Of a DNA stretch of 64,000 bases, positions 23,019 through 42,871 are shown piece by piece; positions within the stretch are counted from its first letter, which is position 1; each line of letters starts with the position of its first letter. The position numbers were made by a program, and so were the translations under genes. The stretch is taken from positions 32,893 through 96,892 of the forward strand of contig JBPOHQ010000008.1 of assembly GCA_052035405.1 (NCBI GenBank), read 5' to 3'. Source of the DNA: Candidatus Nomurabacteria bacterium (GTDB taxonomy: Bacteria; Patescibacteriota; Minisyncoccia; Phycocordibacterales; UBA9973). Below the pieces are notes generated by a model. It was not told the DNA's origin and did not search any database. It was given only the letters and a program-made list of their open reading frames with translations.

Positions 23019-23099
23019 GTGATAAAGATACTATATCCTTAATGCAGTTTATTTGCAAGTAAAAGTTTGTTCAACTTTGATTATTTATGTGGATAAACA

Positions 23100-23660
23100 A
23101 AAGTGACAAGTGTTTTAGTCTCTGGTAGGATGTGCTTATAGTATTGGTTTTTTGATAATTAAAACTTGGCTAGGGCAAAAGAAATAGTGTTTAATATAGT
23201 TATTGAGTACTATTTCTTTTGTCTTGCCATGACAAAGAAAGTATCCAGATGGGTTGTGTCCCATTTTCTGTTTCCGCCTGGAGACAAAAATTAACCCAAT
23301 GACAGGGTTAGTCTGGTGCTTTCTTTTAAGAAAGATATTTGTTTTGGGGTTCCCCCAGGTAAGCGTGTGACGCCCTATCGTCACACAAACTGCCTGGGGT
23401 TTCCAGAACTAAAAAGAATGTTAGATAAGTAAGCACTCAGGGGGAGCCTGGTACAAAGGTTCTGGGTTCCCTTTTTGCTTCATCTGACAAGAGGTAAGAT
23501 TAGCGGTTCTTCCAGCTCTGCTGAAAAGTGGTGGCTGGATTTGTTGAAAAATCCTCTCCATTTTGGAGAGTAAAGATACGAGACAGAAGAAAAGATCCAA
23601 ATAAAATGTGTTGTGCGACTTGGTAGCAATTATCAAGTCGCATTTTTATTTATTTAATTA
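23100..23660 (+). ncRNA. Candidate structured non-coding RNA of unknown class, ending at an intrinsic terminator
   Basis: About 550 nt with no credible ORF; multiple nested helices (ccccagg...cctgggg, gtgtgacg..cgtcacac, ctttctt..aagaaag); terminator gcgactt-N13-aagtcgc followed by a T-run at 23615-23652. Confidence 0.25.
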
Positions 23661-23681
23661 ATTGAATTGTGGATAACTATT

Positions 23682-23708
23682 TTGCATACTTTTTTAAAGT
23701 GGTATAAT
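23682..23708 (+). promoter_or_regulatory. Sigma70-like promoter (TTGCAT-N15-TGgTATAAT, extended -10) driving the multi-hairpin RNA
   Basis: ttgcat at 23682-23687; tggtataat at 23700-23708. Confidence 0.5.
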
Positions 23709-23714
23709 TAATAC

Positions 23715-24090
23715 AGAGATAAAAAAGTTGTTCGACAAACAAGAAGAGAGAGATGTAGGAAATAGTATTTAATTCTTTGAATACTGCTTCCTATATCTAC
23801 CCCTTCTATGATATAGAAAAAAATGCATCTAACGATGCAAACTATCGCCACCACGTGGCAACCAAAAAACTGTTACAATTGTAACAATTTAATTTAATCG
23901 CTAATTATATTAGCAAACCGTTTCCCGCTCTTTCGAGCAAAAAAATTGTTGATTATTATCAACACCTGTTCTTTCTAAAAATAGCTAACATCTGTTAGCA
24001 AAACTCATATAGTCACTTCGGTGACAACATCTATCGCATATTTTATATGCACTACAACCCAGCAAAAAATCGCTGGGTTTTTTGTTTGTA
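23715..24090 (+). ncRNA. Candidate novel non-coding RNA of about 375 nt made of about 12 different short hairpins (12-26 nt palindromes) at roughly 27-nt spacing, bounded by a promoter and a terminator
   Basis: No ORF; palindromes at 23764, 23791, 23824, 23847, 23871, 23900, 23927, 23948, 23984, 24012, 24036 and 24058, including a perfect 16-mer tgttacaattgtaaca and a UUCG-loop hairpin gtcacttcggtgac. Confidence 0.4.
24058..24086 (+). terminator. Rho-independent terminator (cccagc-N8-gctggg followed by TTTTTT)
   Basis: Hairpin plus T-run read directly. Confidence 0.75.
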
Positions 24091-24100
24091 TTTTTAAATT

Positions 24101-24129
24101 TTGCTAAAAAACCAATAACAAGCTATAAT
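24101..24129 (+). promoter_or_regulatory. Consensus sigma70-like promoter TTGCTA-N17-TATAAT upstream of tRNA-Pro
   Basis: ttgcta at 24101-24106; tataat at 24124-24129. Confidence 0.55.
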
Positions 24130-24154
24130 CATAGAGTTTTCAGTAAGAAGTATT

Positions 24155-24364: not shown

Positions 24365-25273
24365 CTACTTGCTGTTTAATTCATTAACTCTTTTATTGTA
24401 AATATTTATAAAAGCATCAAGTGTTTCCGTTTTAAATGCTAATATTTTTAGCATTACTGGGTCACCTTGTTTTATTTTATCAGCCAAGAGAAGAGATTCT
24501 CTTTGATCTTGAAGCGAAGTTATAAAAGAATAAAATATACTCAATTCTGTTTTTGTTATTGTATTTTCTTCGGCAGGATTATTTTCAGCTAGTTTTTTAT
24601 ATTGTTTATCTGAAAGGTCAAAGTAAAACACAGGCATGTTTTTTAAGGGTGTTAAAATCATTTCTTTATTCTTTATCTTGATTCCATATTTTAAGTCTGC
24701 ACCTCCACTCTCAACAATGGCAAGAGTTTTATCAGCTTTTTTAATTGTAAGAGGCAACGCTCCTTCTGATAGTTCTCTATTGTCTTCAAGTAGACTATCA
24801 AGAGCACAAATTGTTTTACCTGTTTTTTTATTTACAATAATAAAGTCTGTGCCAGCCTCGTAGTCATCATAGCTTGCAGTACGCATAACCAGAAAGTCAT
24901 CGCCCAGCACTTTATTTAAAAGTATAGTTACCATAATTTCTGTTTGAGTACCATTCCTCCTCATCTTATCTTCTCGCCATCTGTTTAAGCAACGATCTTG
25001 TGAAGTAGGATCTTCCGAGTGACATTTTGCAAAACTTAATTCCCTTTTTCTTATAGTTGCTTTATCTTTCTCAATTTCTTCTTTTGAATAAATTCCACCA
25101 TTATCTAGCATAAAGGCATCCATTGAAACGGACCCATCTGTTTTTATTAAATTTTGCTTTCCGTACTCTTCCTCTATTCTTTTATTATTTTCGTTAGAAA
25201 TAAACGAAAGCCTTTTTCGTAGCTTTACACTTAGGTGCTCTAAGGCACTTTGTTCAGGTTTAAATTCTCCCAT
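24365..25273 (-). CDS. Hypothetical protein (302 aa)
   Basis: ORF track only; no motif recognised. Confidence 0.45.
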   Translation of the reverse strand: MGEFKPEQSALEHLSVKLRKRLSFISNENNKRIEEEYGKQNLIKTDGSVSMDAFMLDNGGIYSKEEIEKDKATIRKRELSFAKCHSEDPTSQDRCLNRWREDKMRRNGTQTEIMVTILLNKVLGDDFLVMRTASYDDYEAGTDFIIVNKKTGKTICALDSLLEDNRELSEGALPLTIKKADKTLAIVESGGADLKYGIKIKNKEMILTPLKNMPVFYFDLSDKQYKKLAENNPAEENTITKTELSIFYSFITSLQDQRESLLLADKIKQGDPVMLKILAFKTETLDAFINIYNKRVNELNSK

Positions 25274-25292
25274 TTATGTATTATACCTTATA

Positions 25293-25766
25293 TCATAAAA
25301 CAATATCAGAAATTACATTTATTTTTGCTTTTTTATGAGCTAGATCTAGATAAACCACCAGTAGATCCACTTGCCACCCCGTATCTTCTGAGATTCTATT
25401 GGACATAAGGTATGTCTGGATTGTCCGTGATAGACGCTTCAGTTTCCAAGGGTGCATGTTATCTTCAGGCCGATAATCATCCTTCTCGAACGTTTCATGT
25501 GGAACATTCTTTCCTTCTGTTTCATGAGAAACATTAGTTTTTGATGTTTCACGTGGCACAAATGAAGGTAATGTTACGCGTGAAACGCTTTTTACCTCAA
25601 TAAAATAGAGTTTTCCTTGTTTTTCAGCTATTATATCTATTTCACCCCATTTTTTAGTGTAGTTACGATCAATTACTGAGTAACCGTGTTTCACAAGAAA
25701 ATTAACGGCGATATTCTCGCCAATTTCTCCTGTTTTCTGGGTTTTTGAAGTAAAAACCTTTGGCAT
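25293..25766 (-). CDS. yraN: YraN/UPF0102-family endonuclease-like protein carrying an in-frame repeat insertion
   Basis: GEIGENIAVNFLVKHGYSVIDRNY..GEIDIIAEKQGKLYFIEVKS and a C-terminal GWQVDLLVV block fit UPF0102; an inserted segment VTLPSFVPRETSKTNVSHETEGKNVPHETFEKDDY is encoded by the palindrome array. Confidence 0.65.
   Translation of the reverse strand: MPKVFTSKTQKTGEIGENIAVNFLVKHGYSVIDRNYTKKWGEIDIIAEKQGKLYFIEVKSVSRVTLPSFVPRETSKTNVSHETEGKNVPHETFEKDDYRPEDNMHPWKLKRLSRTIQTYLMSNRISEDTGWQVDLLVVYLDLAHKKAKINVISDIVL
25491..25585. repeat. Array of four 14-bp palindromic elements at exact 27-bp spacing inside yraN (gtttcatgtggaac, gtttcatgagaaac, gtttcacgtggcac, gttacgcgtgaaac)
   Basis: Copies start at 25491, 25518, 25545 and 25572; the 27-bp period keeps the reading frame (9 codons). 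Confidence 0.8.
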
Positions 25767-25842
25767 GTATTAATTATACAAACAAAACGATAAAAATGTT
25801 ATATGTGTAACAAATCACAACTACGTTTTATAAATAATTAGT

Positions 25843-25856
25843 GTTTCATGTGGAAC
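25843..25856. repeat. Solo intergenic copy of the 14-bp palindromic element (gtttcatgtggaac, identical to the 25491 copy)
   Basis: Exact 14/14 match to the copy at 25491. Confidence 0.6.
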
Positions 25857-26039
25857 AAGAAGTTGGAAATGACAATTAGAGCCAATTCTATATTTTATAA
25901 GGGTTTTTTAGGTTACTTTGGTCTAAAAGACAAGATTTTTATGTCCGTTATGCACAATACCAACATAGTTATCCACAGTCTGTTAGTAAGTCCTTATTTT
26001 TTAATAACCACAAATATCAGTCATCAGAGACAAAATTTG

Positions 26040-26111
26040 TGCACCCGGAGGGATTCGAACCCCCAACGACGGTTCCGAAGACCGGCGTGATATCCATTTC
26101 ACTACGGGTGC
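26040..26111 (-). tRNA. tRNA-Arg (anticodon UCG, tentative); CCA not encoded
   Basis: Minus-strand cloverleaf: acceptor gcacccg/cgggtgc, D-arm gtga-aatggata-tcac, anticodon loop cttcgga with one C:U mismatch at the base of the anticodon stem, T-arm ggggg-ttcgaat-ccctc. Confidence 0.65.
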
Positions 26112-26132
26112 ATGGAATTAATCAACTTACAA

Positions 26133-26161
26133 AGTATAGCTTATTATGGTTTTTTAATCAA
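26133..26161 (-). promoter_or_regulatory. Sigma70-like promoter (TTGATT-N17-TATACT on the minus strand) upstream of tRNA-Arg
   Basis: Reverse complement of 26133-26161 reads ttgatt-aaaaaaccataataagc-tatact. Confidence 0.4.
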
Positions 26162-26224
26162 AAATATTTAGTGATGAAAGCTGAAACGCTATAATATTCA
26201 TATTTAATATGCTAAAAAAGAAAA

Positions 26225-26253
26225 TTGCAAATCGATAAGCAAAGTAATATAAT
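26225..26253 (+). promoter_or_regulatory. Consensus sigma70-like promoter TTGCAA-N17-TATAAT upstream of tRNA-Gly(GCC) and cca
   Basis: ttgcaa at 26225-26230; tataat at 26248-26253. Confidence 0.55.
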
Positions 26254-26289
26254 GATTTAGTTCTTTTATTTTTTATTATACATAACTAA

Positions 26290-26360
26290 GCGGTTATGGT
26301 TTAGTGGTAGAACACGTCCTTGCCAAGGATGAGACGGGAGTTCGATTCTCCCTAGCCGCA
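26290..26360 (+). tRNA. tRNA-Gly (anticodon GCC); CCA not encoded
   Basis: gcggtta...cacgtccttgccaaggatg... close to the canonical tRNA-Gly(GCC) anticodon arm; T-loop ttcgatt. Confidence 0.85.
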
Positions 26361-26371
26361 CAAATTCCAAG

Positions 26372-27964
26372 GTGGAACAAAATACTAAAAATTTAAAAAC
26401 AAAGATACCTAAAGAGGTTTCACATGTAACAAAAAACCTAGAAGAAGCTGGTTTTGATGTTTTTCTTGTTGGAGGGTGCGTAAGAGATATTTTAATGAAT
26501 AAAGAGCCTAAAGATTGGGATCTGACTACCAACGCTACTCCAGAACAGATTATTCCATTGTTCGACAAGACTGTGTACGAGAATAACTTCGGAACGGTAG
26601 CTGTTTGCGTGCCACGTGAAACAAAAAATACCTTTGTTCCGCATGAAACAGGAGTTTTTGATGTTTCACGTGGCACAAATGGTTCAACTAATAAAAATGT
26701 TACACATGTAACAGAAGAAAGTGTTCCACATGAAACGCTAGAATATGAGATAATTGAGGTTACTCCATATAGAACCGAGACAAAATACAGTGATTTTAGA
26801 CATCCCGATGAAGTAAAATTCAGCGATAAACTAGAAGATGATCTAAAAAGACGTGATTTTACAGTAAATGCTATGGTTATGGACTCTCAGGGTCATGTGC
26901 AGGATCTGTATAATGGTTTAACGGACATAAAGGACAAAATTTTAAGGACAGTAGGAGAGCCAGACGAGAGATTTAACGAAGATGCACTTAGAATGTTAAG
27001 AGCTGTTCGTTTTGCTTGCCAGCTTGGATTTTCTATTTCACATGAAACATCTGAAAGCATGTTTCGAAATGCCGATTTAATAAAAAAGATATCCACAGAG
27101 AGGATTCGTGATGAATTTTCAAAGATAATCATGTCACCGACTCCGGCCGCTGGAGTGGTTATGTTACAAAAATTTGGATTATTAAAACATGTTATTCCTG
27201 AGTTAGAGGAGGGTATAGGATGTGTTCAAGGTGGTGCACATATATACGATGTGTGGGAACATTTGTTAATGGCTCTCCAGCACGCTGCAGATAAAAATTG
27301 GCCATTTGAAATTCGTTTTGCCGCACTTATGCATGACATAGGTAAACCGAGAACTCGAAGACCTGGAGAAAAGAAAGCCTATACTTTCTACGGACATGAA
27401 GTCGTGGGTGCACGAATGGCGAAGAAAATAATGGAGAGATTAAAATATTCTAGAAAAGAAACAGAACTAGTGGAGATTTTTGTCCGAACTCACATGTTTT
27501 TCTCTGATACAGAGAAAATAACTCTCTCTGCTGTACGGAGAATTATTGCGAAAGTTGGAAAAGAAAATATTTGGTTACTTATGAATATTCGTGAGTGTGA
27601 CCGAGTCGGCATGAAAAAAACAGAAGCACCGTATAGATTACGTAAATACTTTGCCATGATAGAAGAAGCTCTTCGTGATCCTATTTCTGTGAAACAGCTT
27701 AAAATTGACGGAAGTTACATGATTAACATGTTACACATGAAACCTGGACCCCGCATGGGCTGGATGTTAAACGCTTTACTTGAAGAAGTTCTAGAAGATC
27801 CGACAAAGAATGAAATTGAGTATTTAAAAAATAAAATTCTAGAATTAGAAAAACTTGAGGATAAAGATTTACGAGAACTTGGCGAGAAAGGGAAAGAAGC
27901 AAAAGAAGAATTAGAAGAAGAAGAAATAGAAAAATTACATGCTAAGCATGGGGTAAAAAAATAA
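26372..27964 (+). CDS. cca: CCA-adding tRNA nucleotidyltransferase (polymerase-beta head plus HD domain) with in-frame palindromic-repeat insertions; GTG start 12 nt after tRNA-Gly
   Basis: FLVGGCVRDILMNKEPKDWDLTT, RRDFTVNAM, HD motif LMHDIGKP; an atypical inserted segment VCVPRETKNTFVPHETGVFDVSRGTNGSTNKNVTHVTEESVPHETLEYE. Confidence 0.85.
   Translation: MEQNTKNLKTKIPKEVSHVTKNLEEAGFDVFLVGGCVRDILMNKEPKDWDLTTNATPEQIIPLFDKTVYENNFGTVAVCVPRETKNTFVPHETGVFDVSRGTNGSTNKNVTHVTEESVPHETLEYEIIEVTPYRTETKYSDFRHPDEVKFSDKLEDDLKRRDFTVNAMVMDSQGHVQDLYNGLTDIKDKILRTVGEPDERFNEDALRMLRAVRFACQLGFSISHETSESMFRNADLIKKISTERIRDEFSKIIMSPTPAAGVVMLQKFGLLKHVIPELEEGIGCVQGGAHIYDVWEHLLMALQHAADKNWPFEIRFAALMHDIGKPRTRRPGEKKAYTFYGHEVVGARMAKKIMERLKYSRKETELVEIFVRTHMFFSDTEKITLSAVRRIIAKVGKENIWLLMNIRECDRVGMKKTEAPYRLRKYFAMIEEALRDPISVKQLKIDGSYMINMLHMKPGPRMGWMLNALLEEVLEDPTKNEIEYLKNKILELEKLEDKDLRELGEKGKEAKEELEEEEIEKLHAKHGVKK
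26417..26430. repeat. Single copy of the 14-bp palindromic element (gtttcacatgtaac) near the 5' end of cca
   Basis: Encodes VSHVT in the cca frame. Confidence 0.55.
26609..26736. repeat. Array of five 14-bp palindromic elements inside cca (starts 26609, 26636, 26663, 26699, 26723; spacings 27, 27, 36, 24, all multiples of 3)
   Basis: gtgccacgtgaaac, gttccgcatgaaac, gtttcacgtggcac, gttacacatgtaac, gttccacatgaaac. Confidence 0.8.
27714..27743. repeat. Degenerate copy plus intact copy of the palindromic element (gttacatgattaac ... gttacacatgaaac) near the 3' end of cca
   Basis: Read directly; encodes MINMLHMKPG. Confidence 0.5.
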
Positions 27965-41049: not shown

Positions 41050-42102
41050 ATGTCTGCAGTTACTGGGTTAAAATCTAATTTAATAAATTTGTCGAACAAG
41101 CGTCCTCTTTCAGGCACTAAAGAATCTCTGAAATTTATTGATTTTTGTGCTGGGATTGGTGCTGGACGTATCGGCTTGGAAAAAAATGGACTAACTTGTG
41201 TTGGATTTTCTGAAATAGACAAACAAGCTGAATTAACTTATAGAAAGCTTTTTGGTGATGAGGAAATAAATTACGGAGATTTGATGAAAATAGACGCAAA
41301 CAAGTTGCCTGATTTTGATATGATGATTGCCGGCTTTCCTTGTCAAAGTTTTTCCGTTATTGGTCAAAGAAAGGGTATGCAAGATGAACGTGGGCAGATT
41401 ATTTATGGCCTTACTAAGATAATGCGTTCAAAAAATCTCAAATACTTTATCTTAGAAAATGTGAAGGGGCTTACTAATCATGAAAAAGGTAATTCACTCA
41501 AGATTATTTTAAACGAATTAGACAGGGTTGGGTATAAAGTTTTCCATAAAGTGTTGAATAGCATTGACTACGGTGTACCGCAAATGCGTGAGAGAATTTA
41601 CCTTGTTGGTATTAGAAAGGATTTAGTGCCTAAAAATTTTGAATTTAATTTTCCAGAACCTCAATCAAAAGTAGACGTAAAACATTACTTAATTGATCCA
41701 AGGGAGTCTGAATTTAAAGAAAATAAAGTTGTTTATGCAACATTTTTAAGATATCTAAAAAATAAGTACAACAATAATCAGTATTCCGTTAAGAGTTTTC
41801 TTAAACAAGAATATGTAATATTGGACACAAGGCAGTCTGATTTAAGGATTTATCATAATAGAGTGCCTACTCTCAGGACAGGTAGACATGGTATTTTATA
41901 TGTAAGAGATGGAAAATTTAGAAAACTATCCGGAGTTGAGTCTTTGTTGTTGCAAGGTTTTCCTAAAGATCTTATTAAGAGAGTAGATGGATATATCAAT
42001 GAAAATTATCTGCTGAAGCAGGCTGGGAATGCTATGACTGTTAACACTATTGAAGCTATTTCTAGAGAGTTGTTTAAGACATTGAAAAAATATGAACAAT
42101 AA
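41050..42102 (+). CDS. DNA (cytosine-5)-methyltransferase
   Basis: Motif I DFCAGIGAG, motif IV GFPCQSFS, ENVKGL, QAGNAM; layout resembles M.MspI/HpaII-type enzymes (specificity not assigned). Confidence 0.9.
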   Translation: MSAVTGLKSNLINLSNKRPLSGTKESLKFIDFCAGIGAGRIGLEKNGLTCVGFSEIDKQAELTYRKLFGDEEINYGDLMKIDANKLPDFDMMIAGFPCQSFSVIGQRKGMQDERGQIIYGLTKIMRSKNLKYFILENVKGLTNHEKGNSLKIILNELDRVGYKVFHKVLNSIDYGVPQMRERIYLVGIRKDLVPKNFEFNFPEPQSKVDVKHYLIDPRESEFKENKVVYATFLRYLKNKYNNNQYSVKSFLKQEYVILDTRQSDLRIYHNRVPTLRTGRHGILYVRDGKFRKLSGVESLLLQGFPKDLIKRVDGYINENYLLKQAGNAMTVNTIEAISRELFKTLKKYEQ

Positions 42103-42871
42103 AAAGAAAAACCAGAAAGAAATGGTGGCTCTTGGCTCAAAAACCGCAAAGGGCGGGTTTGCAAACGAGCAGGACGTTATTAATCGATTTAATAATTGGA
42201 AGACCGATATGATTGCTCAAGAATGGTTAGCAGAAATGAATTACAAAATAGACGATATTGAGTTTGTGCAAGCTTCAAAAGTGAAAGGTCAATATAAAGC
42301 CGATATTCAGGTTAGGATAACTATATTAATAAAACAACAATCTCAAGAGGATGTGCAGAATTTACAGGTGAAGCTCGTGAGTAATCCGCAAGGATTTAAT
42401 CAAATAGATAAAAGATGGGTTGATAAATATGTGGAACTTTGGAATATCCCCGCTGACGTATCAAGGATACTTAAGCTTTTTACTGGTGAAATAGCTTCCT
42501 CAAAAAGCGGTTTAAGAGATCCGCGAAGAATGTTTTTAGATGAAATGAGTGTGTCTGACCAAGATAAACTTATAAAATTTATAGAGGGAAACAAGATCTT
42601 GATTATTTCAGATTTATTAAAAGGTAGAGGGGAATTTTCTGCAGATTGGACATTGGTTATTTTAAAAGTTACAGGAGATGATGCTTGGGTTTTAAGATCA
42701 GTAAATCACGTTATGAATGTTTTTGGTTCAGGTGAAGTCCTAATTACTCGTAAGGGTAGTTTGAATATTGGTAATATTACCATGCAAAGAAAAGGGGGAG
42801 ATGGAGGTCGCAAAACAGCTCAAATGCTTCAATTTAAAATAAATCCTGTCTTGTTATTTGATAGTAAATAA
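42092..42871 (+). CDS. Putative type II restriction endonuclease partner of the m5C methyltransferase (MspI-like?)
   Basis: Start overlaps the MTase stop by 11 nt; C-terminal RKGGDGGRKTAQMLQFK loosely resembles the MspI C-terminus; identity tentative. Confidence 0.45.
   Translation: MNNKKKNQKEMVALGSKTAKGGFANEQDVINRFNNWKTDMIAQEWLAEMNYKIDDIEFVQASKVKGQYKADIQVRITILIKQQSQEDVQNLQVKLVSNPQGFNQIDKRWVDKYVELWNIPADVSRILKLFTGEIASSKSGLRDPRRMFLDEMSVSDQDKLIKFIEGNKILIISDLLKGRGEFSADWTLVILKVTGDDAWVLRSVNHVMNVFGSGEVLITRKGSLNIGNITMQRKGGDGGRKTAQMLQFKINPVLLFDSK

Follow-up and report, generated by a model that had tools for sequence, protein, structure and literature searches.

In-frame arrays of putative chromosomal parS sites in two conserved genes of a Candidatus Nomurabacteria genome

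Why should a gene for a widely conserved protein carry a palindrome that recurs at an exact period and leaves the reading frame intact? The question is posed by yraN, a gene of the UPF0102 family on a 64-kb stretch of a Candidatus Nomurabacteria contig (hereafter the window; with extensions of 10 kb per side, ~84 kb were examined in all). Four palindromic 14-mers within this gene (GTTTCATGTGGAAC, GTTTCATGAGAAAC, GTTTCACGTGGCAC and GTTACGCGTGAAAC) start at positions 25492, 25519, 25546 and 25573, that is, at an exact 27-nt period, and the minus-strand open reading frame (ORF) runs across them as VSRVTLPSF / VPRETSKTN / VSHETEGKN / VPHETFEKD. An earlier, sequence-only reading of this DNA had described the palindromes, their frame-keeping period of nine codons and the translation correctly; the coordinates that it gave, 25491 and onwards, are those of the flanked 16-mers (CGTTTCATGTGGAACA, TGTTTCATGAGAAACA, TGTTTCACGTGGCACA and TGTTACGCGTGAAACG), and the 14-mers themselves begin one nucleotide later. 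Its degenerate pattern has 14 matches where 0.08 are expected by chance. The yraN array escapes Tandem Repeats Finder, since its 13-nt spacers share no sequence with each other. We propose that the palindromes are putative chromosomal parS sites and probably constitute an origin-proximal partition locus, i.e., a ParB-loading centromere cluster overprinted on coding DNA.

The identity of the motif is best read from the relatives of the window genome, which comprise 80 loci of Candidatus Nomurabacteria/Paceibacterota (candidate phyla radiation, CPR; L001 to L080), with many counts taken from 70 of them. Together with YraN homologs, these loci place the window in the same group. A profile of 401 sites from these 80 genomes yields the 16-mer T-GTT[T/A]C[A/T][C/T][G/A]TGAAAC-A, i.e., T-GTTTCACGTGAAAC-A. 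This clade profile agrees with canonical chromosomal parS, the binding site of ParB, for which the published consensus is TGTTNCACGTGAAACA and for which GTTTCACGTGAAAC is listed in M. smegmatis (PMC7022226). Published genomes carry 2-22 parS copies in the origin domain (PMC7022226). The sequence-only reading had known of no described element with such an architecture, a view that does not survive the match to canonical chromosomal parS. In consensus, origin-proximal position, clustering and conservation at the DNA level, the sites have the sequence attributes of chromosomal parS. As putative parS, the in-frame arrays that lengthen protein loops are an unusual layout of a familiar element; in the literature searched, coverage of which was incomplete, we found no description of in-frame parS arrays or of parS in Patescibacteria.

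The motif extends well past the interval that had been flagged earlier, to an intergenic copy, a second in-frame array in cca, the gene of the CCA-adding enzyme, and solitary copies (Table 1). A 16-mer position weight matrix (PWM) built from related genomes has 17 matches at a score of >=10 in the window, against 0.95 in shuffles. Thirteen strong sites all lie at 25491-27744 (2.3 kb), two weak sites fall within the same cluster, and two marginal stray matches (PWM 12-14.5) lie outside it. Beyond the 2.3-kb cluster, the PWM scan found no strong parS-like copy in ~84 kb, the right extension (L081) holding one marginal match and the dnaA-side extension (L083) none. Coding DNA holds 10 of the 13 strong sites. 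Among 46 comparable genomes the window cluster is the largest, with 11 sites of <=2 mismatches versus a median of 5 (maximum 8 in the 45 relatives), and at this threshold it spans 2.2 kb versus a median of 1.1 kb. The intergenic site at 25842 is the orthologue of a perfect parS that is present there in most relatives. The weak site in phase 2 of yraN (peptide FLVKH) has three mismatches in the window genome, whereas most relatives have it with 1-2 mismatches, at position +66 of yraN; the site near the start of cca (peptide VSHVT) is kept in relatives as well, with VSHVT seen 47 times. Both are overprinted on native helices, with no insertion.

Selection acts here on the DNA and not on the peptide. 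By context, the 401 sites divide into 221 in coding phase 0 (V-x-x-E-T), 87 in phase 2 (FLVKH) and 93 in non-coding DNA. None is in phase 1, because the consensus there makes a TGA stop; it can be translated in the other two phases alone, as V-S/P-R/H-E-T or F-H-V-K-H. Synonymous codons are biased toward the palindrome and counter to the preferences of the genome itself. At the conserved VSRET site of yraN, valine is encoded by GTT in 79% of cases versus 33% in the background, serine by TCA in ~47% versus 19%, and arginine by CGT in ~53% versus 15% and by AGA in 7% versus 36%. In a comparison of yraN between the window and L001, the closest genomic relative, identity is 87.5% at the palindrome positions, 67% in the spacers and 85% over the remaining gene; at third codon positions alone the figures are 87.5%, 45% and 70%, respectively. 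Palindrome and spacer identity differ significantly (Fisher p = 0.019). The parS-like sites are held while the spacers drift. Silent positions are constrained, and the motif is present both outside genes and in another gene that is unrelated to yraN; the refuting conditions named by the sequence-only reading are thus decided in favour of an element at the level of DNA.

The predicted peptides written by the two arrays (for example VPRETSKTNVSHETEGK) lie in loops of their host proteins. Ahead of the yraN array only positions 1-43 of the 80 positions of the Pfam UPF0102 profile align, and sampled YraN homologs differ in copy number, with 1-4 units at the array position, after an invariant EVKSVSR. 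In the AlphaFold model, loop residues 65-96 have a predicted local distance difference test score (pLDDT) of <50 and lie between a confident strand and a confident helix, with the core at pLDDT 86-96; the segment of YraN encoded by the array is thus predicted to be disordered. An insertion in the loop of an ordinary YraN, as initially suggested, therefore describes most of the array. Its first unit is the exception: VSRVT overlaps KSVSRxT, a segment near-invariant in the clade, so that this unit is overprinted on native sequence and not inserted. The cca array encodes residues 81-122 (PRETKNTFVPHETGVFDVSRGTNGSTNKNVTHVTEESVPHET) of the CCA-adding enzyme. Alignment with PDB 6ibp matches residues 19-80 to 50-112, and residues 123-266 pick up at 112, which makes residues 81-122 purely an insertion, 42 amino acids long, that separates two strands in the catalytic head domain. 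In 68 genomes this loop is 14-59 amino acids long and contains 0-6 sites.

In several relatives a GC-rich hairpin of ~31 nt sits in frame in the middle of a parS copy and divides it in two, as in GTTTCACAC-TTGTCCGCCAAAGCTTTAGCGTCGGCGGAG-GAAACA, which is read as V S H [LSAKALASAE] E T. Further short GC-rich hairpins occur in the same loops (CCTGCCTGCCGGCAGGCAGG, CTCTCCTTATAAAGGAGAG). These hairpins resemble a further class of very small DNA insertions that keep the frame. They are found in the cca loop of L047, L006, L043, L051, L055, L073 and L078, also in L007, L012, L015, L021, L029 and L040, and in YraN of P0005, P0007 and P0018; the window has no such insertion.

The cluster spans the divergent pair yraN / tRNA-Arg, tRNA-Gly, cca, a pairing kept in 67 of the 80 genomes, and the positions of sites within yraN and cca are common to different genomes. 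Over 70 genomes, the stretch between -1500 and +500 relative to the yraN start has 1-3.7 sites per kb, and the remainder of +-10 kb has ~0-0.05. Extension via identical proteins shows dnaA-dnaN and jag-yidC-yidD-rnpA-rpmH ~5-7 kb past the left window edge, which puts the cluster ~30 kb from dnaA. Gene orientation turns from minus to plus at the cluster and the cumulative GC skew has its minimum there, while the mean GC skew over relatives changes sign at yraN, GC skew being confounded with gene orientation at this locus. In 70 genomes, the 500 bp upstream of yraN contain 63 occurrences of the perfect DnaA box TTATCCACA, which is all but absent from the remainder of +-10 kb; in relatives the box is fixed 125-127 bp from the intergenic parS. 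DnaA boxes are present in the dnaA-dnaN spacer as well, and we therefore call the location origin-proximal and not oriC itself.

The DnaA box is part of a strongly conserved non-coding module located between tRNA-Arg and yraN (window 25858-25977; equivalent in ~60 of L001-L080), with an invariant TGTGGATAA/TTATCCACA DnaA box, recurring AAGGACA/TGTCC motifs and AT-rich tracts. This module may be oriC or an origin-linked control region, though dnaA is ~30 kb off. In relatives, DnaA boxes form a secondary group located +2 to +4.5 kb from yraN. In the window, a non-coding 1.1-kb stretch (23019-24154) contains two perfect DnaA boxes (23088 and 23668), and a GC-richer segment at ~23200-23640 may be structured, although Rfam, at E up to 1, gave nothing above noise.

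If the palindromes are parS, ParB dimers would bind each 16-bp site, close into clamps that depend on cytidine triphosphate (CTP) and slide off. Loading would be faster where sites are closely packed, so that one partition complex is nucleated and SMC is possibly recruited. In a gene-dense genome most sites would come to lie within coding DNA, and extra copies would survive solely in loops that tolerate a hydrophilic disordered peptide, at in-frame steps. The arrays probably gain and lose units of 24 or 27 nt through duplication or slippage, the spacers diverging thereafter and selection holding the palindromes. The step of 27 nt is probably the in-frame value closest to a preferred site distance of ~26-27 bp, because non-coding pairs in the clade are 25-27 nt (or 16 nt) apart. 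Among the 80 genomes, which form an unbiased set, closely neighbouring sites lie 27 nt apart in 31 cases, 16 nt in 12, 24 nt in 9 and 26 nt in 7, and in no case at the in-frame steps of 18, 21, 30 or 33 nt. Non-coding pairs upstream of yraN either abut (16 nt) or lie 25-27 nt apart. The 27-nt period is thus not universal, with 24-nt steps also occurring in frame and steps of 16 and 25-27 nt in non-coding DNA.

Similar arrays recur beyond the clade. Metagenomes were scanned for triplets of sites exactly 27 nt apart, with the central 4 nt left free. Of the 129 arrays returned, most are common protein repeats of 9 residues whose DNA has 4-6 mismatches to parS; only ~17 loci are genuine. Genuine 27-nt arrays occur in Nomurabacteria-type loci (L084, L098 and L199). 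In two loci of ~70% GC (L112 and L119), three perfect parS spaced at 27 nt lie in frame just upstream of a ParA ATPase domain. The parS triplet shares an open frame with a ParA/Soj ATPase domain (VSRETVRGDVSRETATPAVSRET...VANQKGGVGKTT) in L112:10198-11679(-), L119:3953-5146(-) and L138, where it may be either an N-terminal extension or part of the 5' leader, given the long stop-free frames of high-GC DNA. Four sites lie just upstream of gidA in L113, arrays adjoin dnaX (L104) and gyrA (L093) on contigs of very low GC content, and flanking sites in L102 are 26-29 nt apart. A contig of a phi29-like podovirus (L169), marked by a protein-primed DNA polymerase B, a Gp16 packaging ATPase and a CHAP endolysin, has five perfect parS at the 27-nt period (674-797) and three more perfect copies (2530, 2548 and 7683). 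A synthetic VSRET/VPRET array peptide returned 85 candidates from a database of 5.8 billion proteins, none of them scored, a result uninformative on the spread of the arrays. Together, these patterns suggest that a step of ~26-27 bp is a property of parS arrays that the reading frame quantises to 27 or 24 nt. We advance only as a speculation, which we doubt more than we trust, that arrays with ~26-27 bp from centre to centre are a recurrent, selected centromere architecture of CPR bacteria, high-GC bacteria (at parA) and phi29-like phages, reflecting a preferred geometry of neighbouring ParB dimers or of clamp loading. In Nomurabacteria such arrays would have spread into protein loops next to a DnaA-box module, the possible true origin, with par genes unlinked or possibly non-canonical, and centromere function would write variable disordered peptides into housekeeping enzymes.

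Several observations weigh against an assignment to parS. No perfect parS is among the 13 window sites, each of which is 2-3 positions off the strict 14-mer; compared with GTTNCACGTGNAAC, they have 1-2 mismatches as counted by eye from the listed 16-mers. The window cluster is without a perfect or one-mismatch copy, whereas most relatives keep a perfect copy upstream of yraN, and window sites often have a CACATG or CATGTG centre instead of CACGTG; a CGCGTG centre is also among their variants. Orthologous sites in related genomes are non-independent observations. The metagenome scan fixed the period at 27 nt, so that a 27-nt preference outside the clade is biased evidence and no measure of spacing. 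Above all, no par genes were found in the neighbourhood: Pfam detected no ParB, ParA/Soj or SMC-loading gene in the window, and none turned up in the extra 10 kb on either side or, by precomputed Pfam calls, near the cluster in two relatives. With Spo0J and Soj of B. subtilis as tblastn probes, neither the window nor the 80 relatives, covered to +-10 kb around the cluster, gave a match; the C-terminal 127 residues of the Spo0J probe are a near-exact match to PDB 5noc. A B. subtilis DnaA probe likewise had no tblastn match in the window and the 80 loci. Relaxed Pfam searches (E up to 1) of unannotated mid-size ORFs of the window returned no ParB-like domain, and in the literature searched we found no statement on ParB in CPR/Patescibacteria.

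It is on this negative result that an alternative hypothesis can be built, in which the palindromes are orphan parS-like operators, bound by a protein other than ParB (an origin regulator, or a transcription factor of yraN, cca and the tRNAs) or serving replication control together with the DnaA-box module. That no ParB or ParA was found in the ~84 kb around the cluster and in +-10 kb in 80 relatives would fit this proposal, as would the locking of the intergenic parS at 125-127 bp from an invariant DnaA box in a conserved module, which suggests a combined origin/regulatory unit. We nevertheless consider it unlikely, as the 16-mer consensus is that of the ParB site, which different bacterial phyla have conserved, the genes of Par systems often lie apart from individual parS sites, and equal array architecture adjoins ParA in other lineages. 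Should the lineage have no ParB at all, the palindromes would count as orphan operators, a far more novel finding. A similarly small chance is left to the idea that one or a few sites are functional, e.g., the intergenic copy, and that the in-frame arrays arose neutrally, through slippage that multiplied an ancestral coding parS in loops able to tolerate it. Copy number does vary from 0 to 6 between genomes, the array copies of the window are all imperfect, and a single parS suffices in C. glutamicum (PMC7083940). Across genomes, site number is unrelated to having a perfect site (Mann-Whitney p = 0.25), and a compensation of the missing perfect site by many weak ones finds no support in the same test. 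Neutral duplicates, however, should decay uniformly, whereas the palindromes are kept even at third positions while the spacers are not, and throughout the clade two different genes retain arrays.

Two further explanations have far less in their favour. A mobile or RNA-based repeat, be it an insertion resembling a Rickettsia palindromic element (RPE) or a miniature array akin to clustered regularly interspaced short palindromic repeats (CRISPR) or TIGR, would account for the repeat-spacer look with unrelated 13-nt spacers and for the preservation of frame, and small GC-rich hairpins are indeed inserted in frame in the same loops of some relatives. RPE are dispersed, mobile elements of 100-150 bp, which also place palindromic DNA in frame within conserved genes and add surface peptide, and we know of no protein that binds them. 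The copies described here differ in that they are 16 bp long, keep to a single 2.3-kb locus where their positions are orthologous over 70 genomes, are neither dispersed nor mobile, and match a known protein-binding site, so that the kinship with RPE drawn by the sequence-only reading has to be given up. Its comparison to a miniature CRISPR fares no better. The likeness extends to short, partly palindromic conserved repeats that alternate with unrelated spacers of fixed length, but these arrays have 4-5 units of a 14-16-bp repeat that matches parS and are located in translated, conserved ORFs; Pfam found no cas or tas domains in the window, and Rfam, at the gathering threshold and at E up to 1, found tRNAs only around the cluster. 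We thus regard a mobile or RNA-based origin as very improbable. Least credible of all is an ordinary 9-residue protein repeat (V-x-x-E-T plus linker) under selection at the peptide level, with coincidental symmetry of the DNA. Many of the 27-nt-period matches from metagenomes are of this kind, such as collagen-like VTGATG with 4-6 mismatches to parS. For the locus studied here, a repeat at the peptide level is refuted by the codon bias and by the non-coding copies, and it would leave unexplained the second reading phase (FLVKH) and the occurrence in an unrelated protein; moreover, the encoded segment is predicted to be disordered and is missing from solved homologs.

The preferred interpretation as chromosomal parS invites comparison with characterised partition systems. 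B. subtilis has 10 parS copies, C. glutamicum 10 in 35 kb, M. xanthus 22 and C. crescentus 5 (PMC7022226; PMC7083940), and 9 of the 10 in C. glutamicum are intergenic (PMC7083940). Chromosomal ParABS clusters and the window cluster are alike in the 16-bp palindrome TGTTNCACGTGAAACA and in the presence of several copies in the origin domain. Compared with C. glutamicum, where one of the 10 sites is coding, the window cluster is much denser (13 sites in 2.3 kb) and mainly coding (10 of 13), and it differs from chromosomal ParABS clusters in its in-frame arrays that lengthen protein loops and in having no par genes within tens of kb. A parS site within the B. subtilis spo0J gene was reportedly described by Lin and Grossman in 1998. 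B. subtilis Spo0J contains QNVPRETKKK (PDB 5noc), and thus the VPRET coding signature of the arrays. This spo0J site resembles the array units in its phase 0, its V-P-R-E-T peptide and its position in a flexible linker of the protein, and differs in being a single copy, not a copy-variable insertion, with the par gene itself as host. The sopC centromere of the F plasmid consists of 12 tandem 43-bp repeats, each with a 16-bp inverted repeat bound by SopB/ParB. It shares with the arrays the fixed-period tandem arrangement of palindromic ParB-family sites and the non-conserved DNA between them, and is distinct in plasmid location, non-coding nature, 43-bp period and site sequence. Phages of the phi29 family are said, after Meijer et al. 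in 2005, to carry parS to hijack host Spo0J; the phi29-like contig L169 has the same 27-nt array geometry, with perfect copies in seemingly non-coding DNA of a phage replicon.

An apparent mystery repeat thereby becomes recognisable, and it probably marks the centromere, and possibly the origin, of an unculturable CPR lineage. It could be used to anchor assemblies of metagenome-assembled genomes and to locate the ori domain. The putative parS arrays would be a natural case of dual coding, in which a selected cis-acting DNA site dictates V-S/P-R/H-E-T and drives disordered insertions of variable length in conserved enzymes. For ParB biochemistry, the step of ~26-27 bp offers a natural array design that may reflect cooperative or sterically optimal clamp loading. 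Annotators and curators of protein families could misread such arrays as protein repeats or call antisense ORFs across them. Spurious antisense ORFs of this kind are found in the window at 26266-26676 (-) and 25412-25537 (+) (MPRETSKTPVSCGT..., ...SRTFHVEHSFLLFHEKH), because in-frame-spaced parS arrays are stop-free on both strands.

Table 1 Features of the yraN-cca locus (window coordinates; sites are parS-like 16-mers)
Feature	Coordinates	Strand	Sequence, peptide or frame	PWM score or basis
Host gene 1, yraN, UPF0102 family, 157 aa	25293..25766	-		Pfam PF02021, homologs, AlphaFold model
yraN array of four 16-bp sites (25491, 25518, 25545, 25572)	25491..25587		phase 0 in yraN	PWM 18.5-22.8
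Weak site on conserved N-terminal YraN helix	25687..25702		phase 2, FLVKH	PWM 12.4
Weak intergenic site	25797..25812		TGTTATATGTGTAACA	PWM 12.2
Intergenic site upstream of yraN	25842..25857		TGTTTCATGTGGAACA	motif match, PWM
DnaA-box pair	25948..25977	+	TTATGCACA at 25948 (one mismatch), perfect TTATCCACA at 25969	
tRNA-Arg(TCG), within cluster between yraN and cca	26039..26111	-		
tRNA-Gly(GCC), directly upstream of cca	26290..26361	+		
Host gene 2, cca, CCA-adding enzyme / poly(A) polymerase family, 530 aa	26372..27964	+		Pfam PolyA_pol, PolyA_pol_RNAbd, HD; PDB 6ibp alignment
Site on N-terminal helix of CCA enzyme	26416..26431		VSHVT	PWM 20.2
cca array (26608, 26635, 26662, 26698, 26722)	26608..26737		in frame; steps 27, 27, 36, 24 nt	
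Solitary site in cca	27034..27049		TATTTCACATGAAACA	PWM 17.0
Solitary site near cca 3' end	27729..27744		TGTTACACATGAAACC	PWM 20.2

Two other features of the window deserve mention. A 302-amino-acid ORF with no Pfam match (24365-25273, minus strand) lies downstream of yraN, between this gene and a tRNA-Gly/Pro pair; it was considered as a partner protein and rejected, being present in 2 of the 80 genomes and thus a lineage-specific addition. At 41050-42871, a C-5 cytosine methyltransferase is followed by a restriction endonuclease of the R.HinP1I family, which together form a type II restriction-modification pair.

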